Source: Bacteroidota bacterium (GTDB taxonomy: Bacteria > Bacteroidota > Bacteroidia > Palsa-965). Taken from it: a stretch of 64,000 bases of DNA. Shown piece by piece: positions 11,335-45,731 of the stretch; within the stretch, counting starts at the first letter, position 1; the number at the start of each line of letters is the position of its first letter. The stretch spans positions 1,618 through 65,617 of the forward strand of contig VBWE01000014.1 of the NCBI GenBank assembly GCA_006218065.1, in the 5' to 3' direction. Made by a program: the position numbers and the translations under genes. The notes under the pieces are model-generated. The model worked only from the letters and a program-made list of their open reading frames with translations, had not been told where the DNA came from and did not search any database.

Positions 11335-12350
11335 TGCTCACCATCGACATTCATACGCATATCCTGCCCGAACAGATCCCGAACTGGAAAGAGAAATTCG
11401 GTTACGGCGGATTTATTCAGCTCGACCATCATAAATCCTGCTGCGCGCGCATGATCCGCGACGACGGAAAATTTTTCCGCGAAGTGGAAGACAATTGCTG
11501 GAGCGCGGAAAAACGGATGCAGGAATGCGATCATCACCATGTGCATGTGCAGGTGCTTTCCACGGTGCCCGTGATGTTCAGCTATTGGGCGAAGCCGCAG
11601 GACTGCCTCGAACTTTCGAAATTCCTGAACGATCATATCGCGGAAATCGTGCAGCGTTTCCCGAAACGTTTCATCGGCCTGGGTACTATTCCCATGCAGG
11701 ATGCGAAAATGGCGGTCGCCGAACTCGAACGCTGCAAAAAGATCGGGCTGAAGGGAATCCAGGTCGGCACGAACGTGAACCAGGAAAATTTGAATGAACC
11801 GAAATTCTTCGAAATTTTTGCGGCCTGCGAAAAACTGGACATGGCGGTTTTCATTCATCCCTGGGAGATGATGGGTGAGCAGCATATGCAGAAATACTGG
11901 CTTCCCTGGCTGGTGGGCATGCCTGCGGAAACTTCACGCGCGATCTGTTCGATGATTTTCGGCGGCGTATTTGAAAAACTGCCGAAACTTCGCGTGGCCT
12001 TCGCGCACGGAGGAGGATCGTTTCCATCGACAGTCGGACGCGTGCAGCACGGTTTCGATTGCCGCCCCGATCTTACCGCGATCGATAATAATGTTCCGCC
12101 GAAAAATTATATCAGCAAATTCTGGATCGACTCGCTGGTTCACGATCCGCACATGCTCGACTTCGTGGTGAACCAGTTCGGCGCGAACCGCGTAGCGCTC
12201 GGCAGTGATTATCCTTTCCCGCTCGGCGAAAATATTCCCGGTGAACTCATTAAAAGCATGAACTGGGACAATGCCAAAAAAGAACTGCTGCTCAGCGGTG
12301 CGGCGCTGGAATGGCTGGGGATGGAGAAACATTTTTTCCGGCAGGACTGA
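11331..12350 (+). CDS. 2-amino-3-carboxymuconate-6-semialdehyde decarboxylase (ACMSD, amidohydrolase-2 family).
   Basis: The translation aligns nearly residue-for-residue with animal ACMSD (IDIH.HILP…FGYGG..QL.HH…VQVLSTVPVMFSYWAKP…YWLPWLVGMPAETS.AICSMI.GGVFEK.PKL.V.FAHGGG.FP.TVGR). Confidence 0.9.
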   Translation: MMLTIDIHTHILPEQIPNWKEKFGYGGFIQLDHHKSCCARMIRDDGKFFREVEDNCWSAEKRMQECDHHHVHVQVLSTVPVMFSYWAKPQDCLELSKFLNDHIAEIVQRFPKRFIGLGTIPMQDAKMAVAELERCKKIGLKGIQVGTNVNQENLNEPKFFEIFAACEKLDMAVFIHPWEMMGEQHMQKYWLPWLVGMPAETSRAICSMIFGGVFEKLPKLRVAFAHGGGSFPSTVGRVQHGFDCRPDLTAIDNNVPPKNYISKFWIDSLVHDPHMLDFVVNQFGANRVALGSDYPFPLGENIPGELIKSMNWDNAKKELLLSGAALEWLGMEKHFFRQD

Positions 12351-32813: not shown

Positions 32814-33143
32814 AAGGAATTGCGCGGTCTTTTTAAAATGCAGTCATCCCCGGGTTTGATGAAGCAAAAAAGGAAGGGGAAAGCAGGCCGGGGAAATCGT
32901 CCCGTTACGGCCTTTTTGCCCTTTGCAAATCTTAATATTTATTGTAGGTTTGCCATGAATGCATTACAGCTAAAGGCATGTGTTGCTGCTGCTGATCGAG
33001 GTGAACAACAATATTGAGAATACAAGTTGAGGAGGCGTTTTTTCGGCGCCTCTTTTTTGACGAGTCAACCCTGTATTTTTTCACCCCGGTCGGTGCGGAC
33101 ATCATGCCCGGCGCAAGTACAAACAACACACAATACAACCGTT

Positions 33144-33719
33144 ATGGCTATTAACCTGCAAAAAGGACAGAAGATCGACATTGCGCTGTCCAACATGAGT
33201 GTAGGCCTTGGCTGGAATCCCAATGAAGGCACCGGCCAGGCTTTCGATCTTGACGCTTCGGCGTTCATGCTCAACGAAGGAAGACTGATTCCCACCGAAG
33301 GGCATTTTATTTTCTATGGCAATACCGATTCGCCCGACGGCGGTTTGCATCATACGGGCGATGATCCTACCGGCGGCAACAGCGCTGACGGTGATGATGA
33401 AACCATCATGGTGAACCTGGCCAAAGTAAGTGCGGACATCCAGGAAATTCTTTTCGTGGTTACCATCCATGAAGCCGGCTCGCGCAGGCAGAATTTCGGG
33501 CAGGTGCGCAACTCTTATATCCGTATCGTGGATAACGGGAACGGGACGGAAATCGCGAAATATGAACTCGGCGAAGATTTCTCGGTTGAAACAGCCGTCG
33601 AATTCGGGCGTCTTTATAAGCGTGACGGAAAATGGAAATTCGAAGCTTCCGGCATCGGTTATAAAGAAGAACTCGCTTACTTCGTAGAGAAGTACTATAA
33701 AGGACAAGTCATTAAATAA
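33144..33719 (+). CDS. TerD-family stress protein (TerD paralog 1).
   Basis: MAINLQKGQKIDI…VGLGWNPN…FDLDASAFML…GDDPTGG..ADGDDE.I.V.L is the canonical TerD fold signature including Ca-binding Asp pairs. The ATG lies inside a longer ORF frame that starts at 33027. Confidence 0.9.
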   Translation: MAINLQKGQKIDIALSNMSVGLGWNPNEGTGQAFDLDASAFMLNEGRLIPTEGHFIFYGNTDSPDGGLHHTGDDPTGGNSADGDDETIMVNLAKVSADIQEILFVVTIHEAGSRRQNFGQVRNSYIRIVDNGNGTEIAKYELGEDFSVETAVEFGRLYKRDGKWKFEASGIGYKEELAYFVEKYYKGQVIK

Positions 33720-33752
33720 GTAAGTAGTTACACCAAATAACAAACGTAGATT

Positions 33753-34427
33753 ATGGCAATTAACCTGCAAAAGGGTCAAACCATTGACCTTCGCAAAAAC
33801 GATCAAGGTGAAAGTTTCGATCTTTCCCAGGTGACCATCGGCCTCGGATGGGACATGCGTAAAAAAGAAGGCGGCGGTTTTCTCGGAAAACTTTTCGGCG
33901 GAAAAGAAGAGGATTATGACCTCGATGCGGTTGCATTCCTGATGGATGCGAGCGACAAAGTGGCCAACCTGGGCCGCACCGTGCAGCATCCGAACGGCAT
34001 GAAAGTGCCGCTGTTCGAAAGCGACGTCATTTACTTCAACTCGCAGCGCCACCCTTCGGGGCATATCTGGCTTACCGGCGATAACCGCACGGGAGCAGGT
34101 GACGGCGACGACGAACAGATCATCGTGAAACTTGACGCGCTCGAGCAGCGTTTCCAGAAAGTGATGTTCCTGGTTACCATTTACCAGGGCAAACAAAAAG
34201 GCCAGCATTTCGGTATGGTTGCCAATGCGTATATCCGTGCGGTAGATGCCCGCGGAAAAGAAATTGCGCGTTACAACCTGTCGGGCGACGCCAGCATGAA
34301 CGGCATGGCCGGTATGGTTTTCGCCGAAGTGTACCGTAAGGACGGCACCTGGAAATTCCGCGCGCTCGGCAACCCGCAGAACACCGATAACTTTATCGAA
34401 GTACTTCGCCAGCACGTATATCAATGA
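33753..34427 (+). CDS. TerD-family protein (paralog 2, with inserts).
   Basis: MAINLQKGQTIDL…IGLGWD…YDLDAVAFLM…LTGDNRTGAGDGDDEQIIVKLD is a TerD signature. Confidence 0.9.
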   Translation: MAINLQKGQTIDLRKNDQGESFDLSQVTIGLGWDMRKKEGGGFLGKLFGGKEEDYDLDAVAFLMDASDKVANLGRTVQHPNGMKVPLFESDVIYFNSQRHPSGHIWLTGDNRTGAGDGDDEQIIVKLDALEQRFQKVMFLVTIYQGKQKGQHFGMVANAYIRAVDARGKEIARYNLSGDASMNGMAGMVFAEVYRKDGTWKFRALGNPQNTDNFIEVLRQHVYQ

Positions 34428-35119
34428 GCATACTGACCGGCGTCAGCCATATATCGTTCGATCTGTGGCTGACGCTGATCCGGTCAGCGCCCGGTTTTAA
34501 ACCGGAACGCGACCGTTTGCTCGCCGGTCATTTCGGCATTCAGCGTTCGCCGGAAAAAATTTCGGAAACGGTCAGGCATTTCGACCGGCTTTTCGACCGG
34601 GTGAGTATGATTACCGGGAAAAGTATCGATGCGGATGAAATCGTCCTGGTGATACTGGACGCGCTCGGGGCGGATATTTCAGCCGTGAGCCGCGAACAAT
34701 TGCAGCGTTTTTATGTTGATATGGAAGACTTGTTTTTTTCAAGCCCCCCTGTTCTCATCGATCCGCAAATGCCGCATCACCTGGAAAAGCTCCGGGAAAA
34801 GGGATTTACGCTGAGCCTGTTGAGCAACACGGCGTTTATCAGGGGTAAAACATTAAGAAAAATACTGGCGCATTATGAAATGGATATACATTTTGATTTC
34901 CAGCTTTATTCGGATGAGATCGGTTACGCCAAACCTGCGCCCGGCGCTTTTGCCTGTTTATGGCAGGAAGCAAAAAAACGCCGCAGCCTGGAAAAGGAAA
35001 TGATCCTGCATATCGGCGATAATCCCGACGCCGATGTAAAAGGCGCTTCGGATTTCGGCATGCGGGCGGCTTTGTTCAACCGGCAGGAAACCGCGCTGGC
35101 CGATATGCTGGAATGCTGA
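34424..35119 (+). CDS. HAD-superfamily hydrolase (phosphatase-like) with a non-canonical motif I.
   Basis: Motif I is ISFDLWLTL, motif II LSLLSNT, the motif III Lys is in YAKP, and motif IV is GDNPDAD. The ATGA overlap with the upstream TerD gene indicates translational coupling. Confidence 0.7.
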   Translation: MSILTGVSHISFDLWLTLIRSAPGFKPERDRLLAGHFGIQRSPEKISETVRHFDRLFDRVSMITGKSIDADEIVLVILDALGADISAVSREQLQRFYVDMEDLFFSSPPVLIDPQMPHHLEKLREKGFTLSLLSNTAFIRGKTLRKILAHYEMDIHFDFQLYSDEIGYAKPAPGAFACLWQEAKKRRSLEKEMILHIGDNPDADVKGASDFGMRAALFNRQETALADMLEC

Positions 35120-35155
35120 TGAACGGGATTTTCCCGTGTAAACAACAGGAATGAG

Positions 35156-35998
35156 ATGATTGTAAAACAGGCTTTAAAATTCGAAACGTTTTCCCTGCAT
35201 AAAATTCATGCGGCAGATACGCTCGCGTTCAGCGCGGAAGCTTACAGCCGGTTTAAATTCGGTCATGGCGGGTACGCGGAACAGTTCGGCCGCGAACTGG
35301 CGCTGAAATTTATCCGCGCGCACAGTGAACTGCTTTTATCCGAAGAAAAGATCGTCCTGCTGCCGAGTCCTTACGATTCCATTCCCACCGCTTCCAATGC
35401 CATGGCGCGTTCGTTCCGCACGGTACTGAATGCGTTCCTGGCCCGCCACGAAAAAAAATCGCTGCTCGAATCCAAAATACACCGCTACAAAACGTACAGC
35501 GTGGATTACGGCAACCTGGATTTTGAAGAAAGACTGCGGCTGATCTCGGCCGATACATATCATATCGACCGCGATTTCCTGAAAGAAGGACTCGTGCTGC
35601 TTATCGACGATGTGCGCATTACCGGGAGCCACGAACTGATGATCCGCAACCTGATCCGGAAAAATGAAGTCCCCGGCCATTTCGTATTCCTGTATTACGC
35701 CGAACTGGCCGACAAATCCGTCGCTCCCGATTTTGAGAATTACCTGAACTACTTTTTTGTGAAGGATATCCGGGGCATTCTCGAGATGATTCATGCGGAT
35801 TTCTTTATTTTTAACACAAGGGTGATCAAGTACATCCTGGGCTGCGATCAAAAACAGTTCGGGCTGGTGCTGGAAACCGTTCAAAAGGATAAACTGGTGC
35901 AATTGTGCGATCATGCGTTCGGCAACAATTACCACCTGATGACCGAATACAAAGAAAACCTCGAACGCATTCAACAACACATCCACTATGGCCATTAA
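35156..35998 (+). CDS. Phosphoribosyltransferase (PRTase)-fold protein of the ter-associated type.
   Basis: LVLLIDDVRITGSHEL is a PRPP-binding loop. The ORF overlaps the next TerD start by 11 bp. Confidence 0.7.
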   Translation: MIVKQALKFETFSLHKIHAADTLAFSAEAYSRFKFGHGGYAEQFGRELALKFIRAHSELLLSEEKIVLLPSPYDSIPTASNAMARSFRTVLNAFLARHEKKSLLESKIHRYKTYSVDYGNLDFEERLRLISADTYHIDRDFLKEGLVLLIDDVRITGSHELMIRNLIRKNEVPGHFVFLYYAELADKSVAPDFENYLNYFFVKDIRGILEMIHADFFIFNTRVIKYILGCDQKQFGLVLETVQKDKLVQLCDHAFGNNYHLMTEYKENLERIQQHIHYGH

Positions 35999-36539
35999 TC
36001 TTCAGAAAGGACAGCGCGAAAATATCAACGTGCCCAAATTCACCGTCGGTCTCGGCTGGGACGCCAACAGCAGCGCTACGGGAGGCGAGTTCGATCTCGA
36101 CGCTTCGGTATTCCTGCTCACCGAAAATCACAAAATTCCCGGCGACGATTATTTTGTTTTTTACAACAACAAAGTTTCCGGCGACGGATCGGTGACGCAT
36201 TCCGGCGACAACCGCACGGGCGCCGGCGACGGTGACGACGAGCAGGTGGTAGTCGACCTCTCGAAAGTAAATCCGCAGGTTACGCAGATCTGTATCGTGG
36301 TAACCATTCACGAAGCCGAAGCACGCCGCCAGAATTTCGGACAGGTGCGCAATGCCTTTATCCGCATCATCGACGCGAGCGGAGCGGAACTGGTGAAATA
36401 CGATCTCGACGAAGATTTCTCGATCGAAACGGCCGTGGAATTCGGACGCATTTACAACCGCAGCGGCCAGTGGAAATTCGAAGCCGTGGGCGTAGGCATG
36501 CAGGGCGGATTAGGTGATTATCTTACAAAGTATACGTAA
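35988..36539 (+). CDS. TerD-family protein (paralog 3).
   Basis: MAINLQKGQRENI…VGLGWDAN…FDLDASVFLL…GDNRTGAGDGDDEQVVVDL is a TerD signature. Confidence 0.9.
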   Translation: MAINLQKGQRENINVPKFTVGLGWDANSSATGGEFDLDASVFLLTENHKIPGDDYFVFYNNKVSGDGSVTHSGDNRTGAGDGDDEQVVVDLSKVNPQVTQICIVVTIHEAEARRQNFGQVRNAFIRIIDASGAELVKYDLDEDFSIETAVEFGRIYNRSGQWKFEAVGVGMQGGLGDYLTKYT

Positions 36540-36540
36540 T

Positions 36541-36720
36541 GTTCACGTCTCGTCTATCGCTCGACGTGACAAGCCGGCGTTTCAAGTCTAAAGTTTCAAG
36601 TTTAATGTTTCAGGTTTTGTAACGCATCAGATCAAAAGACAAAACGTTGAACATTAAACTTTAAACCTGAAACTTTAGACTTGAAACATTGAACAGTAAG
36701 CAGAACTCTCCGAAGGAATA
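36541..36720. repeat. Post-stop conserved hairpin (CACGTC-N13-GACGTG) followed by a roughly 110 bp complex palindrome (TTTCAAGTCTAAAGTTTCAAG…CTTGAAACTTTAGACTTGAAA).
   Basis: The inverted repeats are directly visible in the sequence. Confidence 0.7.
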
Positions 36721-36742
36721 ACCAATACTATATAAAACCAAA

Positions 36743-37381
36743 ATGAGAAGACTACCCGTTTACCTCCTGCTCGACACGTCGGGCTCAATGACAGGAGAAC
36801 CGATTGAAGCAGTGAAGAACGGCGTACAGGTGCTTATTTCCACCCTTCGCCAGGATCCGTATGCGCTCGAAACCGCTTACATCAGCGTAGTGACGTTCAA
36901 TACGACCGCTTCGCAGCTGATTCCGCTCACCGATCTTTCTTCGTTCCAGATGCAGGACATCAAAGCCGGCGGATCAACGGCACTTGGCGATGGTCTGAAA
37001 GTACTGGCCGAATGTATCGACCGCGAAGTGGCGAAAAGCACAGCCGAAACCAAAGGCGACTGGAAACCGCTTGTCTTTATAATGACGGACGGTGGTCCCA
37101 CCGACCAGTGGCAGGCAGGCCTCGCCGAATTCCAGAGAAGGAAAGTCGGTGTGATCGTAGCCTGTGCGGCCGGCAGTGGCGCGGATACCAACGTACTCAA
37201 GCAGGTTACCGACGTGGTGGTTTCGCTCGACACGGCTGATTCGGCCACGATCAAAGCCTTTTTCAAATGGGTTTCCGCGTCGATCAGCACCGGCAGCCAG
37301 AAAGTGGAAAGCGGCGAGAAGGAAGTGGGCGGCCTCAGCGAATTACCGCCGCCGCCGCCGGAAGTGAATATAGTGGTGTAA
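36743..37381 (+). CDS. TerY-type von Willebrand factor A domain protein.
   Basis: MRRLPVYLLLDTSGSM is a MIDAS DxSxS motif. The 212 aa product has a C-terminal PPPPPE tail. Confidence 0.85.
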   Translation: MRRLPVYLLLDTSGSMTGEPIEAVKNGVQVLISTLRQDPYALETAYISVVTFNTTASQLIPLTDLSSFQMQDIKAGGSTALGDGLKVLAECIDREVAKSTAETKGDWKPLVFIMTDGGPTDQWQAGLAEFQRRKVGVIVACAAGSGADTNVLKQVTDVVVSLDTADSATIKAFFKWVSASISTGSQKVESGEKEVGGLSELPPPPPEVNIVV

Positions 37382-37587
37382 TGCACATGTCTCGACTGCC
37401 GCTCGACATGACGTGTGTTATACACAGAAGTAAAGAGATCGGCTACCGCTCGACATGACGTGTATGTAATACGCGTAAAAGGAACATCGCCGCCACTCGA
37501 TGTGACGAATACTGTAAGGGCGATGCATTGCATCGCCCCAATGTAATACGGTGATGCATTGCATCGCCCGACTGTAATACAAAACTC
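37382..37587. repeat. Cluster of direct and inverted repeats: a post-stop hairpin CATGTC-N13-GACATG, CCGCTCGACATGACGTGT in 2.5 copies, and a tandem pair of GGGCGATGCATTGCATCGCCC palindromes.
   Basis: The repeats are directly visible in the sequence. Confidence 0.7.
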
Positions 37588-38223
37588 ATGAGACGCCTAC
37601 CTGTATATCTTTTACTGGACACTTCGGGTTCTATGCGCGGGGAACGGATCGAGGCGGTGAAAAACGGCCTGCAGGTACTCCTGTCGAAACTTCGCCAGGA
37701 CCCGCATGCGCTGGAAACGGTCTGGATGAGCATCATCACCTTCGACCGCGAAGTGCACCAGGTACTTCCGCTCACCGATCTCGAATCGCTGCAGATGCCC
37801 GAAATCCTCACGCCCGAGTCGGGTCCGACGAACATGGGCGCTGCGCTGGAAATGCTGCTGCAGAAATCCGACGCGGAAGTGATCCGCAGCACCGACGATC
37901 AGAAAGGCGACTGGCGCCCGCTGCTGTTCCTGATGACCGACGGAAAACCTTCGGACCTCGCCGCTTTCCGCGAAGTCGTCCCGAAAGTGAAAAAGAAAAA
38001 TTTCGCCGCCATCATCGCCTGCGCCGCCGGAGCAGAAGCGCAGGACAGTTTCCTGAAAGAACTGACGGATATCGTCGTTCACCTGGACACGGCCGACAGC
38101 AATACGCTGGTTTCTTTCTTCAAATGGGTATCCGCTTCCATCGGTACGGGAAATATGAGCGTCAGTTCTACCGATCAGCTCATCCTTCCGCCGCCGCCGG
38201 ATGAAGTGCACATGATTATTTAA
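37588..38223 (+). CDS. TerY-type vWA domain protein (second paralog).
   Basis: MRRLPVYLLLDTSGSMRGERIEAVKNG is a MIDAS motif. The protein is about 50 % identical to the upstream vWA. Confidence 0.85.
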   Translation: MRRLPVYLLLDTSGSMRGERIEAVKNGLQVLLSKLRQDPHALETVWMSIITFDREVHQVLPLTDLESLQMPEILTPESGPTNMGAALEMLLQKSDAEVIRSTDDQKGDWRPLLFLMTDGKPSDLAAFREVVPKVKKKNFAAIIACAAGAEAQDSFLKELTDIVVHLDTADSNTLVSFFKWVSASIGTGNMSVSSTDQLILPPPPDEVHMII

Positions 38224-38225
38224 TG

Positions 38226-38458
38226 ATTGTTTAAAACTCCTCCGGAGGATATATTACAAAATAAAGAAAATGAAAGTCGGAGTAGTTTCTTTTTCCAGTT
38301 TACAGTTGACAGTTTGCAGTTGGCAGTTTTTGTTTTACAGGGATGTCGTCAAAACTTCCGCGTTAACGCGTTCAAAACTGCCAACTGCAAACTGGAGTAA
38401 GGACATACGATTACAAAATACTCCCGTTTAAAGGAGCTTCGTTTTATACAGTCTGATC
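38226..38458. mobile_element. MITE-like, non-coding element of about 230 bp with imperfect 13 bp terminal inverted repeats (GATTGTTTAAAAC / GTATAAAACAGTC-type) and a perfect internal 22 bp inverted repeat. This is copy A.
   Basis: It is homologous (about 80 %) to the reverse complement of 48311-48540. It has no ORF. Confidence 0.6.
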
Positions 38459-38469
38459 GAATCCGTTCT

Positions 38470-38727
38470 ATGAAAACATTTTTTTTCCTGTTCCTGAATG
38501 TTTTGATCATTGGCTTGTTCCTGTTTTCAAAATTATTGCCTTACAAGGACAAGCTCGGTAAACAGTACGCAGGAATATTCCGGTTCTTCCAGGCCATTTT
38601 CGACCCGGTGCTCAACTTCATGCGGAAGTTGTTCAAACCGGCGCAGGTAGGGCAGGGACTGGCGGTGGATATGGCGCAGATCATTTTACTGGTGCTGCTT
38701 TTAATCCTGCTGAATTTTTGCAGATGA
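38470..38727 (+). CDS. Small two-TM membrane protein (85 aa), possibly YggT-like.
   Basis: The ORF has two hydrophobic helices. Confidence 0.4.
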   Translation: MKTFFFLFLNVLIIGLFLFSKLLPYKDKLGKQYAGIFRFFQAIFDPVLNFMRKLFKPAQVGQGLAVDMAQIILLVLLLILLNFCR

Positions 38728-38734
38728 AAAAAAA

Positions 38735-38815
38735 TCCGAATGGCGAATGCCGAACTCCGAATGTTGAATTGCGAATTTTGCATTCGGCATTCGACATTCG
38801 GAGTTCGAAATTCAA
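38735..38815. repeat. Nested palindrome and hairpin (CGAACTCCGAATG…CATTCGGAGTTCG, with GAATGCCGA…TCGGCATTC inside).
   Basis: It is visible in the sequence. It is related to the GAATGCCGA repeats at 165-215. Confidence 0.6.
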
Positions 38816-38850
38816 AAAACGTTCTTCTGTTTAACAAGACATAAAAACCC

Positions 38851-39903
38851 ATGAGAAGACTACCCATTTATTTCCTGATCGACATCTCCGAATCGATGGT
38901 GGGCGAACCCATCCAGATGGTGGAAGAAGGTCTTGCCACGATCATCAAGGCGCTGAAAGAAGATCCCTATGCACTCGAAACGGTGCATGTATCCATCATC
39001 GTTTTTGCCGGCCAGCCGAAAACGCTGGTTCCGCTGCAGGAGATCATCAACTTCTACCCGCCGCGTTTCCCCATCGGCGGCGGTACTTCGCTGGGCAACG
39101 GGCTCGGGCACCTTATGTACGAACTGCGGAAAAATACGATCATGACCACGCTCGAACAAAAAGGCGACTGGAAACCGATCGTATTCCTGTTTACCGACGG
39201 CGTTCCGACGGATGATTCGTCGACCGCGATCGCGGAATGGAAAAAGAATTGGGCCAGCAAAGCCAGCATGGTTGCCGTTTCTTTCGGAAGTGAAACCGAC
39301 CTGGCCCTGCTCAAGGAACTTACCGATACCACGTTCATGTTCAAGAATACGAACGTGAACCAGTACAAGGAATTTTTCAAATGGGTTACCGCTTCCATCC
39401 GCACCAGCAGTCTGAGCGTGGAAAACAACGGTTCCGGTTTCGAACTGGCCAAGCCCGACGACGCTGTGATCGCGAAAGTGGACCATGTGGAGAACCATAA
39501 GCCCAAACAGTTTGTTGATACCAACTACGCGGTCTTCGTGGCCAAATGCCAGAACACGAAAAAACCGTACCTGATGAAATACAAACGTATGGTTCGTCCC
39601 ACGACGGTCGGCGGAATGGAGATGAACAGCCTGGTGTACCGCCTCAACGGCGCGTTCATCATCGACGATCTGTATTTCGAATTGTCGGACAACAACGCAG
39701 TGAACAATAAAATCAGCACCGACGAGATGGAAGGATTTCCGACCTGCCCTTCGTGCGGAAACCAGTACGGTTTCAGCGTGTGCAGCTGCGGCAAAATGCA
39801 CTGCGTGGGCAATGAAGAAACAAGCACCTGCCCGTGGTGCGGAAACCAGGGCAAATACGGATTCGGCGAAGGCCGCATGGACATTAATACCACGCAGGGT
39901 TAA
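38851..39903 (+). CDS. TerY-type vWA domain protein with a C-terminal Cys-rich zinc-ribbon module.
   Basis: MRRLPIYFLIDISESM is a MIDAS motif. The C-terminal CPSCGNQYGFSVCSCGKMHCVGNEETSTCPWCGN is a zinc ribbon. The TAATG overlap couples it to the downstream phosphatase gene. Confidence 0.85.
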   Translation: MRRLPIYFLIDISESMVGEPIQMVEEGLATIIKALKEDPYALETVHVSIIVFAGQPKTLVPLQEIINFYPPRFPIGGGTSLGNGLGHLMYELRKNTIMTTLEQKGDWKPIVFLFTDGVPTDDSSTAIAEWKKNWASKASMVAVSFGSETDLALLKELTDTTFMFKNTNVNQYKEFFKWVTASIRTSSLSVENNGSGFELAKPDDAVIAKVDHVENHKPKQFVDTNYAVFVAKCQNTKKPYLMKYKRMVRPTTVGGMEMNSLVYRLNGAFIIDDLYFELSDNNAVNNKISTDEMEGFPTCPSCGNQYGFSVCSCGKMHCVGNEETSTCPWCGNQGKYGFGEGRMDINTTQG

Positions 39904-41318
39904 TGGAACGCGACCTCCGGAAAGATTATATCAAGAGATTACTGGCTTCGAAGCGGATGGAAATTCCGCAGAAGCAGGCGGATTTTTTCGACCGTTTTGT
40001 CGATGATGCCGAAATACTGAACCATTATCAAAGCATAAATAACGCTGCACGAAATATCATGGACACCTGGAAAGAACGCTCGGTCATCGAAGATATCCGT
40101 ACCAAGCATATTCAACTGCCGAATGCGACCGTAGGCAAACCCTACAGTTTCGAATTTTCCCTGGCGAAAATGGGACTGCAGCACATAGAAGAATTCGAGA
40201 TCGACGGTTTTTCGGAACTCGGCCTGAACTTCGATAAAGCCACCGGCATCTTATCCGGCGCGCCCGGGATGAAAGGCGAACATAAAATCAAGTTCCGTTA
40301 TAAACTCGACTTCGGCGCAGAGGAGAGGTCTTTCCATGAAAAGGAACTGACCTTCGTAGTGAATCCCGATCCGAAATCGCTCTGGCAGAATTTACCTTCG
40401 GACAAAGAAGACAAATTCTGGAAAGAAGACAATACTTCGGCGAAGTATGAAATCGCCGGCCGTCATCTCGTGGTGGGTTCCAAGCGGGGCCGCAGCCATG
40501 CGCACGAAGGAAAATTCCGCGACGACGAATATGATTTCTTTTTTGACGAATCGACCGGTTTCGGCGTGATCGTGGTTTCCGACGGGGCCGGCAGTGCGAA
40601 ATATTCGCGGAAAGGTTCGCTGATCGCCTGCGAAAGTGTGGTCGAATATTTTTCGAAAGAAATTCCAGCCGAAGAATACGCCGCGCTCGATGCGACGATT
40701 ATTTCGCATCACCAGGCCAAAACAGACGAAAGTTCGAAAACGCTGCGCGAGTTCCTGGTCAGCCGTCTCGCGAAAGCGGCTTTTTACGCTCACCAGAAAA
40801 TCAAAACCTGTGCGGACGAAAACGAATCCGCCCTGCGGGATTTTTCCGCCACCTTACTGTATTCATTGGTCCGGAAATATGATTTCGGTTATTGCATCAT
40901 GTCTTTCGGCATCGGCGACGGCGGCATCGGTATTTACGACAAGGAGAAAGGCGAATCGCACCTGCTCACCACGCCCGACGGCGGCGAGTTTGCGGGGCAG
41001 ACGCGTTTCGTGACGATGCCCGACATTTTTACGAGCGAAGGATTCTACAACCGGGTTTCGTTTAAGATCGTGGACAATTTCACGGCGCTCGTGCTGATGT
41101 CCGACGGCATTACCGATCCGAAATTCCAGACCGACGCCAACCTCGGCCGCGTGGAAAAATGGGCGGAACTCTGGGAAGATCTCGGCGGAAAAAATGCGGA
41201 CAACGCAACAGTCAAATTCGATCCTGCCAATGAAAATATCGAAGCGGAACTGCTGGACTGGATGGATTTCTGGTCACCCGGGAACCACGACGACAGGACG
41301 ATCGCCATACTGTATTGA
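39903..41318 (+). CDS. PP2C-family Ser/Thr phosphatase with an N-terminal extension domain.
   Basis: GVIVVSDGAGSA is PP2C motif 1/2 and LVLMSDGITD is the C-terminal metal-binding motif. Confidence 0.75.
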   Translation: MERDLRKDYIKRLLASKRMEIPQKQADFFDRFVDDAEILNHYQSINNAARNIMDTWKERSVIEDIRTKHIQLPNATVGKPYSFEFSLAKMGLQHIEEFEIDGFSELGLNFDKATGILSGAPGMKGEHKIKFRYKLDFGAEERSFHEKELTFVVNPDPKSLWQNLPSDKEDKFWKEDNTSAKYEIAGRHLVVGSKRGRSHAHEGKFRDDEYDFFFDESTGFGVIVVSDGAGSAKYSRKGSLIACESVVEYFSKEIPAEEYAALDATIISHHQAKTDESSKTLREFLVSRLAKAAFYAHQKIKTCADENESALRDFSATLLYSLVRKYDFGYCIMSFGIGDGGIGIYDKEKGESHLLTTPDGGEFAGQTRFVTMPDIFTSEGFYNRVSFKIVDNFTALVLMSDGITDPKFQTDANLGRVEKWAELWEDLGGKNADNATVKFDPANENIEAELLDWMDFWSPGNHDDRTIAILY

Positions 41319-41382
41319 TTAAATTCCGAATTCGTACATTCGTAAGGATTTGTAATTCGCAGCCCCGAAGGAAAACAATCTT

Positions 41383-42912
41383 ATGTCAAACACGATCACC
41401 ATCAAAGCGCTCGACGGAAGCACCGTTCAGTATGTCGACAACGGCTCGCCGATGCAGGGCGGGCTGAAGGATGTGTATTTCAGTCCCGATAAAAGTTACG
41501 TGGTCGCTTTTTTCCGCGACAAGCTCAAGCCGGTGGAATATACGCAGACCAAAGAGCGCCTGATCATGATCGCCAACACGTTCCGGGAACGGATTTTCAA
41601 CCAGGCAGGCGGCGAGTACTGGAAAGACCTGTACTGCTGGCCGACCAAAGTGGTTGAATATAACGGCAGGCTCGGTGTGGTTGCGCCGGTTTACCAGAAG
41701 CATTTCTTTTTCGCCACCGGGTATAACCAGAACGCTGCGCAGATCGCGAGTATCAGGGGAAAAGAAAAAGAAGGCAAGTGGTTCGCCGCGCCGCAGTTCC
41801 GCAACGCGAATTTCAAACTGCATCTCGATAAAAAAGAACTCGGCGACTGGTTTAAATATTTCCTGGTCTGCATTCGTATCAGCCGCGCGGTGCGCCGTAT
41901 GCATGCCGCCGGTCTCGCGCATTCCGACCTCTCGTATAAAAACGTACTCATCGATCCCACCACCGGCAACGCGGCCATCATCGATATCGACGGGCTCGTG
42001 GTCCCGGGCAAGTTTCCGCCCGACGTGATCGGTACGCCCGATTTTATCGCGCCCGAAGTCATGGCTACGAAAAGCCTCGGGAAAACCGATCCGAACCGGA
42101 AACTGCCGAGTATCCAGACCGACCGGCACGCGCTGGCCGTGATGATCTATATGTACCTGCTTTATCGTCACCCGCTGCGTGGCGGCAAAGTGCACGATCT
42201 CGATCCGCAGAAAGATGAAGAACTGTCCATGGGCTCGAAAGCCCTGTTCGTGGAGCATCCGACCGACGCCGCGAACCGGCCGAAACTGAAACACGTCAAA
42301 GCGACGCACCTGCCCTGGGCCGACGTAACGAAATTGCCATACACCATCACCGGGCCGTACCTGAAACAACTTTTCGACAAAGCGTTTATCGACGGATTGC
42401 AGCACCCGATGCAGCGGCCGACAGCCGACGAGTGGGAGCAGGCGCTGATCAAAACGGTGGACCTGATGCAGCCCTGCCAGAACCCGCGCTGCGACCAGAA
42501 ATGGTTCGTGTTCGACAATTCCACCACGCCTATCTGCCCGTTCTGCAACACACCTTATAAAGGCCAGCTGCCGATCCTCAACCTCTACTGGCAGCGTTCC
42601 CCGGGAAAATGGGTGGAAGAAAAACACCGCCTGATGGTTTATAATAACCAGTACATTTACCAGTGGCACATCAACCGGACGATTTCGCCGAACGAACGAC
42701 TTTCGGCCGAACAGAAAAAACCGGTCGGTTATTTCGTGATGCACGGCGGAAAATGGATGCTCGTGAATCAAACCATGAACAGCCTGAAAGACGTAACGGA
42801 GAATAAAGAAATTCCCATCGGCCAGATGATCGAACTTACCGACGGTAAACAGATTCTTTTATCGAATGCCGATGGCGGAAGACTCGTCATCGTTCAACTT
42901 GTAAACAACTAA
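41383..42912 (+). CDS. Eukaryotic-like Ser/Thr protein kinase with a C-terminal Cys-rich region.
   Basis: HSDLSYKNVLID is the catalytic loop HxDxxxxN, IDIDGL the DFG equivalent and GTPDFIAPE the APE motif. The C-terminal CQNPRCDQ…CPFCN is Cys-rich. Confidence 0.8.
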   Translation: MSNTITIKALDGSTVQYVDNGSPMQGGLKDVYFSPDKSYVVAFFRDKLKPVEYTQTKERLIMIANTFRERIFNQAGGEYWKDLYCWPTKVVEYNGRLGVVAPVYQKHFFFATGYNQNAAQIASIRGKEKEGKWFAAPQFRNANFKLHLDKKELGDWFKYFLVCIRISRAVRRMHAAGLAHSDLSYKNVLIDPTTGNAAIIDIDGLVVPGKFPPDVIGTPDFIAPEVMATKSLGKTDPNRKLPSIQTDRHALAVMIYMYLLYRHPLRGGKVHDLDPQKDEELSMGSKALFVEHPTDAANRPKLKHVKATHLPWADVTKLPYTITGPYLKQLFDKAFIDGLQHPMQRPTADEWEQALIKTVDLMQPCQNPRCDQKWFVFDNSTTPICPFCNTPYKGQLPILNLYWQRSPGKWVEEKHRLMVYNNQYIYQWHINRTISPNERLSAEQKKPVGYFVMHGGKWMLVNQTMNSLKDVTENKEIPIGQMIELTDGKQILLSNADGGRLVIVQLVNN

Positions 42913-42933
42913 AACAAAATACAGGTATCCCTT

Positions 42934-43746
42934 ATGGATCAACTGCAAATTTACATCGACCAGATTATTCAAAACCCGCTTGCAGCGCTGGCTGTGATCG
43001 GTAACCTGATTGTTATCGAGAGCCTGCTTTCCGTGGACAACGCGGCCGTACTGGCCACGATGGTTATGGATTTACCCAAAGAGCAACGTGCCAAGGCCCT
43101 TCGTTACGGGATTATCGGCGCTTACGTTTTCCGCGGACTCTGTCTTTTGTTTGCCGCTTACCTGATCACGATCTGGTGGCTGAAGCCGCTCGGCGGATTA
43201 TACCTGCTGTATCTCGTTTTCGATTATTTCAAGGGTAAAATGACGCCGGATAAAGAAGAAGACGTGCTCGAAAAACAATCGCACTGGATGTACCGCGCCA
43301 CGATCGGCTGGATGGGCCAGTTCTGGGCTACGGTAGCGCTCGTGGAAATTATGGACCTGGCGTTTTCCATCGACAACGTATTCGCCGCGGTGGCTTTCAG
43401 TGAAAACCTGGTCCTGATCTGGGTCGGCGTGTTCATCGGTATTCTCGCGATGCGTTTCGTTGCGCAGGGATTCGTAAAATTGATGGAACGTTACAAGTTC
43501 CTGGAAACGGCAGCGTTCGTGGTTATCGCCGTGCTGGGCATCAAGCTCATGCTCTCGCTGCTTGAACATTTTTACCCGGATCACGCGTTCAGCAAATTTC
43601 TCGGAAGTCACGCCGCCGACTGGGGTGTGTCGATCATTACTGTTTCCATCTTCTTCATTCCGATCATCACCAGCACCTTGTTCAATTTCCCGAAACGCGG
43701 CGTGCCGGGAGAGAGCGAGGAAAGTAAAGAGGAAGAGAGTAAGTAG
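42934..43746 (+). CDS. TerC-family integral membrane protein.
   Basis: The 270 aa product has about 7 TM helices and the typical TerC pattern (…SVDNAAVLATMV… / …SIDNVFAAVAF…). Confidence 0.85.
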   Translation: MDQLQIYIDQIIQNPLAALAVIGNLIVIESLLSVDNAAVLATMVMDLPKEQRAKALRYGIIGAYVFRGLCLLFAAYLITIWWLKPLGGLYLLYLVFDYFKGKMTPDKEEDVLEKQSHWMYRATIGWMGQFWATVALVEIMDLAFSIDNVFAAVAFSENLVLIWVGVFIGILAMRFVAQGFVKLMERYKFLETAAFVVIAVLGIKLMLSLLEHFYPDHAFSKFLGSHAADWGVSIITVSIFFIPIITSTLFNFPKRGVPGESEESKEEESK

Positions 43747-43840
43747 TCATGCCTCGACTACCGCCCGGCATGACAAGTGTGTTGAATATAGTTGTACCGC
43801 CTGTCGCTCGAACGGACAAGTCTGTTGAAAATAGTTGTAC

Positions 43841-43885
43841 CGCCTGCCAGCCTCCTCCGCCTCAGGCGGAGGAGGCTGGCAGGCG
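43841..43885 (+). terminator. Perfect 21 bp-stem palindrome downstream of the TerC gene.
   Basis: CGCCTGCCAGCCTCCTCCGCC-TCA-GGCGGAGGAGGCTGGCAGGCG. Confidence 0.6.
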
Positions 43886-44015: not shown

Positions 44016-45731
44016 TTACAAAGGTTTGATATCCTTTATACTCAACTGCACGCTGACGTTTCCGTTGAAGTCGTTTTCTTCGATGGCGTAGCACATGTCG
44101 AAGGGTTTTTGCTGGGAAAGCGCGAGGTAATGGTCGCCGAGACCGAAACCGATGGCGGGGAAAATGCGCGTGGGTTGCGCGGGATCGACGATATCCATTT
44201 TCAGGTGATTGACGCCTACGATGCGCAGCCAGCCGCGGTCGCGGACATCGCTGGCGAGGAAAACGGGATTCATATTCCCCGGTCCGAAGGGCGCGAACTG
44301 TTTCAGTATCCGCAGGAGTTTTCCGTCGATATCGTTCAGGCTGAGCGTTGCGTCTATTTCCACTTCGGGCGTGAGCATGTCGGGCGTGATGCGGCGGCTG
44401 ACTTCTTCTTCGAAACGTTCGCGGAATTTTTCCACGTTTTCTTTTTTCAGCGTGAGTCCTGCCGCATATTTATGCCCGCCGAACTGCTCGAGCAAACCGT
44501 TGCAGGCTTCGATGGCTTCGTACACGTCGAAATCTTTTACTGAGCGCGCCGAGCCGGTTACCATGCCGTTTGCTTCGGCGAGTACGATGGTGGGCCGGTA
44601 GTACTTCTCGATCAGCCGCGAAGCCACGATACCGACTACGCCTTTATGCCACTGCGGCTGGAAGAGTACGGTGCTTTTCCGTTGTGCCGCCAGCGGATCG
44701 GCCGCCATCATGTCGAGGGCCTGTTGCGTAATCAGCATGTCGAGGTCTTTGCGGTCGGCGTTGTTTTTGTTCAGTTTTTCAGCGCAGGCTTCGGCTGTTT
44801 TTTCGTCCGGCGCGGTGAGCAGTTCCACCGCCAGCTTGCCGTGTTCGATCCGCCCGGCAGCATTGATCCGCGGGGCGATCGTAAATACCAGGTCGCTCAC
44901 GGTAAATTCGCGTTTCAACGCAGCCATGCGGACCAGGGTTTTTAATCCTTCGCGCGGAGAAGTGTTGATCTCTTTCAGCCCGGCATACATCAGCGCGCGG
45001 TTCTCGCCCGTTACCGGTACAATATCGGCGGCAATACTCACGGCTACGAGATCGAGCAGCGGAAGCAGTTTTTCAAAATCGATTTTCCTTTTCTGCGCAT
45101 AAGCCTGCACCAGTTTGAAACCGATGCCGCAACCCGTAAGTTCATCGTAAGGATAAGTACAATCGTCGCGTTTCGGATCGAGCACGGCCAGTGCGGGCGG
45201 CAGTTCCGGTCCCGGGCGATGGTGGTCGCAGATGATAAAATCAATTCCTTTTTCCCCGGCGTAACGTACTTTTTCCACCGCCTTGATGCCGCAGTCGAGC
45301 GCGATGATGAGTCCGAATTTATTTTCCGCCGCAAAATCGATCCCGGCGTACGAAATGCCGTAGCCTTCTTTATAACGGTCGGGAATATAAAAACCGCATT
45401 CCGCGCCCAGCGCTTTTATAAAGGAGTAGACGAGCGCCACGGCAGTTGTACCGTCCACATCGTAATCGCCGTAAACCAGGATTTTTTCTTCGTTTTCGAT
45501 GGCGTGTTCAATGCGGTCGACCGCTTTGTCCATATCGCGCATCAGGTAGGGATCGTGCAGCTGGTCGAGCGAAGGGCGGAAAAAAATCCGCGCTTCTTCA
45601 AATGTTTTTACTCCCCGCAGCACCAGCAGGCGCGCGAGCAGCAGATGAATTCCCAACTCACTTGCGAGCTTTCGGACCAGTTCTTCGTCCGCACCCGTTT
45701 TTTGCTTCCAGCGCTTGATCATCATGAGCAA
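44016..45731 (-). CDS. recJ: Single-stranded-DNA-specific exonuclease RecJ.
   Basis: ILVYGDYDVDGTTAVALVY is DHH motif I, CDHH is the DHH motif, and there is a DHHA1 region. Confidence 0.9.
   Translation of the reverse strand: MLMMIKRWKQKTGADEELVRKLASELGIHLLLARLLVLRGVKTFEEARIFFRPSLDQLHDPYLMRDMDKAVDRIEHAIENEEKILVYGDYDVDGTTAVALVYSFIKALGAECGFYIPDRYKEGYGISYAGIDFAAENKFGLIIALDCGIKAVEKVRYAGEKGIDFIICDHHRPGPELPPALAVLDPKRDDCTYPYDELTGCGIGFKLVQAYAQKRKIDFEKLLPLLDLVAVSIAADIVPVTGENRALMYAGLKEINTSPREGLKTLVRMAALKREFTVSDLVFTIAPRINAAGRIEHGKLAVELLTAPDEKTAEACAEKLNKNNADRKDLDMLITQQALDMMAADPLAAQRKSTVLFQPQWHKGVVGIVASRLIEKYYRPTIVLAEANGMVTGSARSVKDFDVYEAIEACNGLLEQFGGHKYAAGLTLKKENVEKFRERFEEEVSRRITPDMLTPEVEIDATLSLNDIDGKLLRILKQFAPFGPGNMNPVFLASDVRDRGWLRIVGVNHLKMDIVDPAQPTRIFPAIGFGLGDHYLALSQQKPFDMCYAIEENDFNGNVSVQLSIKDIKPL

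Follow-up and report, generated by a model that had tools for sequence, protein, structure and literature searches.

Hairpins past three stop codons of a Bacteroidota ter operon as probable copies of a widespread REP/BIME-like hairpin repeat

Among the short hairpin repeats described in bacterial genomes, the class closest to the element treated here is that of the CGTC-tagged repetitive extragenic palindromes (REPs), which were sorted by Di Nocera, De Gregorio and Rocco in 2013 (PMC3733652) into the families CGTC-1 to -4 and include the dRS3 repeats of Neisseria as well as RPE-4 and RPE-6 of Rickettsia. The tag of these REPs is often TGTC or CCTC, their stems open almost invariably with complementary AT, and they carry a 3-nt tail with the consensus CCA. 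Head-to-head (HH) dimers predominate, tail-to-tail (TT) ones are rare and head-to-tail (HT) ones negligible, with spacers of 20-100 bp and with heterodimers whose partners have different stems. They occupy intergenic positions, mostly 3' of coding regions, where the neighbouring open reading frames (ORFs) are convergent or co-directional, apparently with no dedicated transposase, and Bacteroidetes are among their host phyla; for Verrucomicrobia the same survey reports only GTAG repeats (Opitutus). A second system is formed by the REPs and bacterial interspersed mosaic elements (BIMEs) of Escherichia coli and the REP doublets forming hairpins (REPINs) of Pseudomonas, mobilised by the REP-associated tyrosine transposases (RAYT, TnpA-REP), for which mRNA stabilisation, termination and interference with translation near the stop codon are the reported side-effects. 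Moreover, Quentin et al. (2018, PMC6006769) describe Y1 transposases of subclass 2.6, from Bacteroidetes, and of class 3, from Acidobacteria and Planctomycetes, with atypical, weaker flanking structures that lack the GT[AG]G tag. The subject of the present work is a hairpin that recurs just past three stop codons of the ter operon of a Bacteroidota bacterium represented by a metagenome-assembled genome (locus tags FD123_), in a stretch of 64,000 nucleotides of contig VBWE01000014.1 (assembly GCA_006218065.1), the whole of which is called the window below. These hairpins are very probably copies of a widespread interspersed hairpin repeat of the REP/BIME kind rather than a regulatory element specific to ter genes. 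The repeat itself is interspersed, multi-copy, structurally constrained, variable between orthologous loci and found preferentially at post-stop positions, and it is abundant in soil Verrucomicrobia and also present in several Bacteroidota lineages.

The three hairpins of the window are the following:

36544..36571, + strand: hairpin module 1, 4 nt 3' of the terD stop; stem CACGTC/GACGTG, loop TCGTCTATCGCTC at 36550-36562, 3' tag AC-A
37386..37412, + strand: hairpin module 2, 4 nt 3' of the terY1 stop; stem CATGTC/GACATG, loop TCGACTGCCGCTC at 37392-37404, tag AC
43746..43774, + strand: hairpin module 3, overlapping the terC stop by one base; stem of 8 bp, GTCATGCC/GGCATGAC, loop TCGACTACCGCCC at 43754-43766

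The first module follows the TAA stop of the third terD gene (36537-36539), with arms at 36544-36549 and 36563-36568, and the second the TAA stop at 37379-37381, with arms at 37386-37391 and 37405-37410. In the third, a core stem CATGCC (43748-43753)/GGCATG (43767-43772) is lengthened to 8 bp, which takes in the G of the terC stop codon (TAG, 43744-43746). An earlier note on this DNA had placed hairpins with covarying stems and a common 13-nt loop right after the stops at 36539, 37381 and 43746, and all of this was borne out: the hairpins start 1-4 nt past the terD, terY1 and terC stops, their stems differ strictly by compensatory changes (CACGTC/GACGTG, CATGTC/GACATG and CATGCC/GGCATG), and the loop consensus TCGWCTRYCGCYC occurs without mismatch at only three sites in 64 kb, which are these hairpins. 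The string GACA(A)GTGTGTT reported there after each copy held in part, with GTGTGTT following copies 2 and 3 and copy 1 having GACAAG only. When one mismatch was allowed, the loop gave 6 matches against 1.1 expected in 64 kb, a number reached in none of 100 shuffles; the additional ones, at 12055, 19116 and 26388 (the last to a related pattern), were set aside as chance, lying inside long ORFs and without arms.

Stems of 6-8 bp and loops of 13 nt are accompanied in the window by the tags GTGAC-A, ATGAC-G and ATGAC-A, and the first two stem pairs are A-T and T-A in copies 2 and 3 and AC/GT, a compensated variant, in copy 1. Predicted stability as RNA is modest, the minimum free energies of the three hairpins lying between -10.3 and -14 kcal/mol (z scores relative to shuffles, -1.2 to -2.5), with module 2 at -14 kcal/mol and z = -2.5. 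A terminator scan called no T-run terminator at the modules on the + strand, its 14 calls in total being fewer than the shuffle mean of 15.7, and the 3' flanks read ACAAG or ACGTG, with no T-run, so that the modules do not have the form of a Rho-independent terminator, in which a GC-rich stem runs directly into T/U residues.

The family to which these hairpins belong was defined on metagenome contigs, where a scan with the loop and right arm (TCGNCTRYCGCYCGRCRTGAC) gave at least 120 loci. Complementarity of the left arm was bimodal: 41 of the matches listed paired at 5-6 of the 6 positions, the others looking random. From the paired matches, on contigs of 25-57% GC, the module consensus is (tTAGA)G - AT-NN-C - TCGACT(N)NCGCTC - G-N'N'-AT - GAC(A), that is, a 5' flank tTAGA-G, a 5-bp stem, a conserved loop of 12-13 nt and an unpaired GAC(A) tag, which is TGTC on the other strand. 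In an alignment of 28 metagenome copies, the members of which had been chosen for pairing, the first two stem pairs are A-U and U-A in every copy. GAC stands directly 3' of the stem in 28/28, followed mostly by A, which again gives TGTC on the other strand, and 9 of the copies have a 1-nt indel in the loop. The flank at the untagged end is conserved (70-90% in each column) as AGAG on the + strand, or CTCT on the tag strand, and not as CCA, and neither GTAG nor GTGG was seen at either hairpin foot of the alignment. An unbiased count of stem pairs was obtained by anchoring on the invariant parts only and leaving the two middle stem positions free. In this count the free positions form Watson-Crick pairs in 45 of 49 distinct copies (GT/AC in 32, TC/GA in 8, GC/GC in 3, CC/GG in 1 and CT/AG in 1), the remaining four have mismatches, and there are no wobble pairs. 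The opinion that a selected structure was involved, and not random repeats, thus found support in independent metagenome copies, with five pair types around a conserved loop, and the covariation in the three window copies is a small sample of a far larger pattern.

In this regard, a covariance model (R1) built from 28 metagenome copies, with no window sequences, was searched against the whole 64 kb with filters off and returned exactly four matches (E = 2e-9, 2e-8, 4e-5 and 5e-4) and nothing else. They correspond to module 2 (37380-37416, 39.6 bits, E = 2.2e-9), module 3 (43742-43778, 36.1 bits, E = 2.4e-8), module 1 (36545-36573, 25.5 bits, E = 3.5e-5) and a partial copy described below. Since the model recovers the window copies, the window hairpins are members of the family. 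Near-identical copies of module 3 (AATGCC-TCGACTACCGCTC-GGCATGAC) are present on three Bacteroidota contigs (L104, L150, L203), at non-ter loci. Comparison with Rfam 15 at the gathering threshold gave no match in the window and, in 20 carrier loci, only tRNA and cobalamin riboswitch, and at E <= 10 the modules themselves match nothing. The family had no match in plasmid and phage collections (BLAST) or in IMG/VR (pattern scan), and a full-text literature search for the motif strings returned unrelated primers only.

Carriers of about 55% GC are soil Verrucomicrobia of the Chthoniobacterales, and those of low GC are Bacteroidota, with sorting domains of the type IX secretion system. The neighbouring genes are housekeeping ones, including those for valyl-tRNA synthetase (ValRS), glycyl-tRNA synthetase (GlyRS), CstA, PanB, DapA/B/F, aconitase, the type II secretion ATPase, aminotransferases and tRNAs; there are no ter genes on the carrier contigs and no enrichment of transposases among 98 carrier ORFs. 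Copies are dense, with 86 matches in 198 kb over 35 loci, and usually lie within ~30 nt of the stop codons of unrelated genes. A contig obtained through its ValRS homologue, and thus independently of the motif (L211), holds 5 significant modules in 15 kb, of which four are 0-33 nt from the stops of convergent genes (for example, CTAG directly followed by TCATCCC after GlyRS) and one is between divergent genes. The orthologous contig L212 has a doublet at just one of these sites, which means that the presence of the module differs between orthologous loci; on both contigs together, 6 of 7 modules are 0-33 nt from convergent-gene stops and the seventh is the one between divergent genes. The arrangement in Verrucomicrobia comprises 21 HH (tag-outward), 2 TT and 1 HT dimers plus 15 singletons, and in low-GC Bacteroidota the modules form mixed clusters, head-to-tail included, as in the window. 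All eight strictly detected HH dimers pair a module with a 12-nt loop and one with a 13-nt loop, and in seven of them the two stems are different and self-compensated. Compensation within the own module indicates that the local hairpin is what is preserved, and not a long-range pairing between the dimer arms. Orientation with respect to stop-to-stop ORFs on the GC-rich contigs was too noisy to be used.

Some particular arrangements were seen among these carriers. In seven low-GC Bacteroidota contigs (L105, L111, L139, L149, L160, L200, L204), arrays contain, mixed with the module, another hairpin module that has its layout but a different loop, TGTCATTTCGACCTTGTGGAGAAATCTG, and an internal insertion is sometimes present. 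Two Verrucomicrobia contigs (L179:1784-1820 and L198:60-96) have copies at the same relative position, ~40 nt upstream of the 5' end of a tRNA gene. On L145 (- strand, ~755-791) a module lies between the 3' end of an integrase gene (...TTMIYTHVLNKPG.GV.SPLD) and a second partial copy of that 3' end, a layout that suggests insertion or rearrangement at a tyrosine-recombinase gene.

The host operon has relatives in which the presence of the element could be followed:

33027..43746, + strand: canonical ter operon, with TerD, TerD, HAD, PRTase, TerD, TerY(vWA) twice, YggT-like, TerY-C, PP2C, kinase and TerC (from Pfam)

Two of the modules are placed here between co-directional genes and one between the convergent terC and recJ. 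The closest named relative of the operon's protein kinase is from a Dinghuibacter sp., and the four closest available ter operons (L082, L083, L086 and L089) encode kinases 90, 86, 85 and 82% identical to it, L082 being the one at 90%; a further contig, L081, is from the same organism as the window (100% identity). The gene order of these four operons is identical to that of the window, and none of their ter spacers contains the motif, the covariance model finding nothing there at E <= 1. Their spacers are short or filled with unrelated, species-specific hairpin repeats, and the three spacers that hold the window copies are among those short or otherwise filled in these relatives. In L082, for instance, only 13 nt separate terY1 from the likely true start of terY2; the terY2 call (L082:6138-6196) seems too late, since an in-frame ATG CGA CGA TTA CCG GTT TAT... 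(MRRLPVY) is found 13 nt past the terY1 stop. The motif is likewise missing from 80 more distant ter loci of Bacteroidota (1.2 Mb, TerY1 identity 71-83%), where the next start is mostly 0-25 nt past the stop. A conserved hairpin at the same ter positions without sequence likeness was considered as well and rejected, as the relatives mostly start the next gene 0-25 nt on and show no consistent structure. The earlier note had tied the element to the ter genes, with a processing site, an attenuator or a protein-binding site in mind, and had itself named absence of the motif downstream of ter genes in related genomes as the finding that would speak against it. Such absence, in the four closest operons and in the 80 more distant loci, refutes a ter-specific element on that note's own terms, and the occurrence of the module next to unrelated genes of other phyla, as well as the missing T-run, go in the same direction.

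Beside copies 2 and 3 the window contains partial copies, arranged head-to-tail at spacings of 47 nt and 43 nt:

37431..37463, + strand: module 2b, head-to-tail with module 2; 5' flank AAGAGAT, loop and right arm kept; covariance model match of 21.6 bits, E = 4.9e-4
37484..37506, + strand: possibly a degenerate module (2c); arms ACATCG/CGATGT around a loop of 8 nt, then GAC; -7.5 kcal/mol
43797..43821, + strand: degenerate copy 3b, CCGCCTGTCGCTCGAACGGACAAGT, head-to-tail, 43 nt past module 3; repeat families D4 and D7

Module 2b forms no hairpin because a 4-nt deletion, visible as a gap in its alignment to the model, took out the left arm, and its fold is no better than those of shuffles, as is the case for two of the partial copies. 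Neither 2c nor 3b is significant with the model; the family membership of 2c is uncertain, and 3b has no stable fold. Of the partial copies and palindromes noted earlier at 37440-37570, the former are real, and the GGGCGATGCATTGCATCGCCC palindromes sit more precisely at 37518-37538 and 37549-37569.

Comparison with the CGTC/TGTC-tagged REPs reveals several common traits. The present family has an unpaired terminal tag (TGTC, or GAC-A), a complementary stem that starts with AT, perhaps a short unpaired tail at the untagged end, intergenic positions past the ends of genes with convergent or co-directional neighbours, heterodimers with different stems, no known linked transposase and Bacteroidetes among its hosts. 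Its copies are mostly HH dimers, with spacers of tens of nt, in the Verrucomicrobia carriers, although not so in the window or in low-GC Bacteroidota. In contrast, the stem has 5 bp (6-8 in the window) instead of 8-9 bp, the loop is strongly conserved and 12-13 nt long where theirs measures 4-5 nt, the putative tail resembles CTC/CCC and not CCA, and the family is present in Verrucomicrobia. Its motif strings were not found in the accessible part of the supplements of PMC3733652. As observed for the REPs and BIMEs of E. coli and the REPINs of Pseudomonas, the modules are short, high-copy hairpins just past stops, gained or lost between related genomes, with compensatory stem variation and with inverted doublets of two subtypes comparable to the Y and Z REPs. 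Unlike those elements, they have a far shorter stem, a larger conserved loop, no GT[AG]G tag at the foot and a sequence conserved across phyla, whereas classical REPs as a rule do not extend beyond one species or genus; nor was a module-flanked RAYT gene found in the window flanks or among the 98 carrier ORFs. With the atypical structures described in PMC6006769 for Y1 subclass 2.6 and class 3, the family shares the lack of a GT[AG]G tag, a weaker structure, copies elsewhere in the genome and overlapping taxa, whereas class 3 has a CnGA foot, and the accessible part of its Table S1 holds no match to the family sequence. By this likeness, both groups of transposases are candidate partners of the hairpin family. 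Altogether, we class the family as working like REP/BIME and as a new variant among the tagged REPs, not as a member of CGTC-1 to -4.

We read the hairpins as a selfish or semi-domesticated element, and those of the ter operon as passengers. A trans-acting enzyme would recognise the local hairpin of each module by its structure, most likely while the DNA is single-stranded, in a way comparable to REPs and RAYTs or to the ends of IS200/IS605, and recognition of that kind would explain why compensation occurs within the module, why there are no G-T pairs and why no orientation is fixed with respect to transcription. Copies would have spread into permissive post-stop positions, and those of the window would then have been duplicated locally, head-to-tail with their spacers, and have decayed, from 2 to 2b to 2c and from 3 to 3b. 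The ter region makes up ~18-24% of the intergenic DNA of the window, and the probability that three independent sites all fall there is P ~0.006-0.014, which suggests local copying between neighbouring ter spacers. Once transcribed, hairpins 1-4 nt past stops could shield the upstream ter mRNA from 3' exonucleases, by analogy with E. coli REPs, and they could likewise disturb translation termination and incidentally shift the stoichiometry of the ter genes. The translation effect of Liang et al. from 2015 reportedly holds for REPs close to the stop codon. That REPs can stabilise mRNA, terminate or attenuate transcription and affect translation is stated in PMC6006769, citing among others Liang, Rudd and Deutscher (2015).

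Several points weigh against this picture. As to a mobilising enzyme, no transposase was found in the flanks within the 64-kb window or among the 98 carrier ORFs. A link to RAYT was sought in the ValRS genes of two Chthoniobacterales contigs (L211:6001-9384 and L212:10001-13300), in which a PF01797 Y1_Tnp (IS200/RAYT-type) domain lies inside the frame, between two tRNA-synt_1 segments, so that the products have 1127 and 1099 aa, a ValRS having normally ~880 aa; the link was rejected, as the domain is an in-frame insert without modules on its flanks. The significant copies known from the source organism, four in its 64 kb, are all in the ter operon, a mildly non-random clustering, and the head-to-tail layout of the window is rare among the Verrucomicrobia copies. 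The proposed effects of the hairpins on ter mRNA are drawn by analogy, and a purely selfish REP would not normally have a loop conserved across phyla and over 25-65% GC, a feature that may point to a cellular function. In this line, the family could be conceived as an undescribed branch of tagged repeats of Verrucomicrobia and Bacteroidota, with loop and stem being read by a conserved trans-acting protein (a mobilising nuclease or recombinase, or an RNA-binding factor) and with the three in-operon copies being co-opted to tune ter stoichiometry, a combination that we consider unlikely.

The clustering just mentioned also speaks for a cis-regulatory RNA specific to the ter operon, which as a processing site, attenuator or stabiliser would, in this lineage, adjust how strongly terD, terY and terC are expressed relative to one another: the four significant copies in 64 kb are all in ter spacers and on the transcribed strand, the hairpins come 1-4 nt past stops, their joint position has the P value given above, and their stems are compensatory. 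Nevertheless, such an RNA is clearly improbable, considering that neither the four closest ter operons nor 80 others have the element in their orthologous spacers, that the same module stands beside unrelated genes in other phyla, that it has no T-run and a modest stability, and that half of the local copies are stem-less, as would be expected for decay and not for maintenance. Each module further contains CTCGxC...CTCGAC, direct repeats of the CTCGAC type 11 nt apart, or about one helical turn, which would suit a DNA operator for a transcription factor controlling the ter genes; a hybrid sensor kinase is encoded upstream of the operon, and at this place in L082 a LytTR response regulator. However, the sites lie past stops and between convergent genes, not at promoters, compensatory stem changes are unexpected for a duplex operator, and the element is missing from related ter operons, all of which makes an operator very improbable. 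Hardly any credit can be given to short, translationally coupled ORFs, which would begin at the ATG found at each stop (TAATG, TAATG and TAGTCATG) and encode related peptides, M..SRLPLDMT. In-frame stretches of 27, 25 and 47 codons do start at or beside the stops, and of the four loop positions that vary, two are synonymous when read in that frame, but the likeness of the peptides ends at the motif edge, the remainder being unrelated, the 1-nt loop indel in 9/28 copies breaks any frame, and the module is found in either orientation and in inverted dimers. The reading of the motif as what remains of a displaced TerY 5' end, suggested by a visual likeness of the motif to a deleted terY start (ATG AGA AGA CTn CCn ... 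CTC GAC ... ATG AC) and by a fitting position, the next gene of the relatives being 0-25 nt past the stop, has practically no probability, because local alignments of the spacers to the 5' regions of terY1, terY2 and terY3 are no better than dinucleotide shuffles (p = 0.13-0.96) and because the copy after terC and the many non-ter copies would stay unexplained. The rejected ALTERNATIVES thus fail on different grounds: the TerY 5'-end relic on the shuffles, the small coupled ORFs on the unrelated peptides and the indel, the DNA operator on position, compensation and absence in relatives, and a canonical terminator on the missing T-run.

Regarding the interspersed repeat as the source of the window hairpins removes a tempting lead for the ter cluster, since hairpins of this origin are uninformative on the general regulation of Ter. 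Uncultured soil Verrucomicrobia, which dominate many soils, carry the module in abundance, and it is common to them and to Bacteroidota over 25-65% GC. For repeat biology, it represents a compact hairpin module with a conserved sequence that is absent from Rfam and from the accessible parts of two REP catalogues (PMC3733652 and PMC6006769). Conservation across phyla, compensation within the module and a BIME-like dimer of two subtypes suggest a conserved recognition partner. The covariance model is useful for annotation, because modules of this kind create spurious small ORFs, can break assemblies and confuse searches for regulatory motifs.

The ter spacers of the window contain other repeats as well:

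36579..36690, no strand assigned: long low-complexity hairpin of 7/14-nt units (GTTTCAA...); inverted repeats I1, I2 and I4; Tandem Repeats Finder (TRF)
37518..37580, + strand: 31-nt tandem repeat, two copies, with a 9-bp hairpin GGGCGATGC-ATT-GCATCGCCC followed by TGTAATAC; TRF period 31, 1.9 copies, 92% match
43841..43885, no strand assigned: 22-bp GC-rich hairpin, inverted repeat I5, 100% complementary; at the operon end, no T-run

The tandem, which corresponds to repeats D19 and I15 and lies directly upstream of the terY2 start, is a hairpin repeat distinct from the modules within the same BIME-like cluster. Strings similar to TGTAATAC also trail the degenerate modules upstream of it, which suggests a composite repeat unit. 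The hairpin at 36579-36690 occupies the remainder of the terD-terY1 spacer and is absent from the L082 spacer. Long hairpins of degenerate 7/14-nt units (GTTTCAA..., CAGTTGA..., CCGAATG...) are found in the ter spacers at 36579-36690, 38296-38394 and 38732-38813, and relatives have other, species-specific long-hairpin versions in the same spacers, such as TTTCGGA... and CTTAGAA... in L083. In Rfam, at E <= 10, the long hairpins of the window and also the tandem at 37518-37580 draw generic matches of a miRNA-like kind that stay below the threshold. In the window and its relatives the ter spacers range from a 1-nt gene overlap up to ~300 nt. The GC-rich hairpin at 43841-43885 was not called by the terminator scan, L082 having at that position a canonical terminator with stem and T-run, and the operon end that it marks faces the convergent recJ (44016-45731, - strand). 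Finally, a gene for an 85-aa YggT-family membrane protein lies at 38470-38727, between terY2 and the TerY-C gene, and is shared by the window and all four of its close relatives; to our knowledge, it is not usually listed among the ter components.

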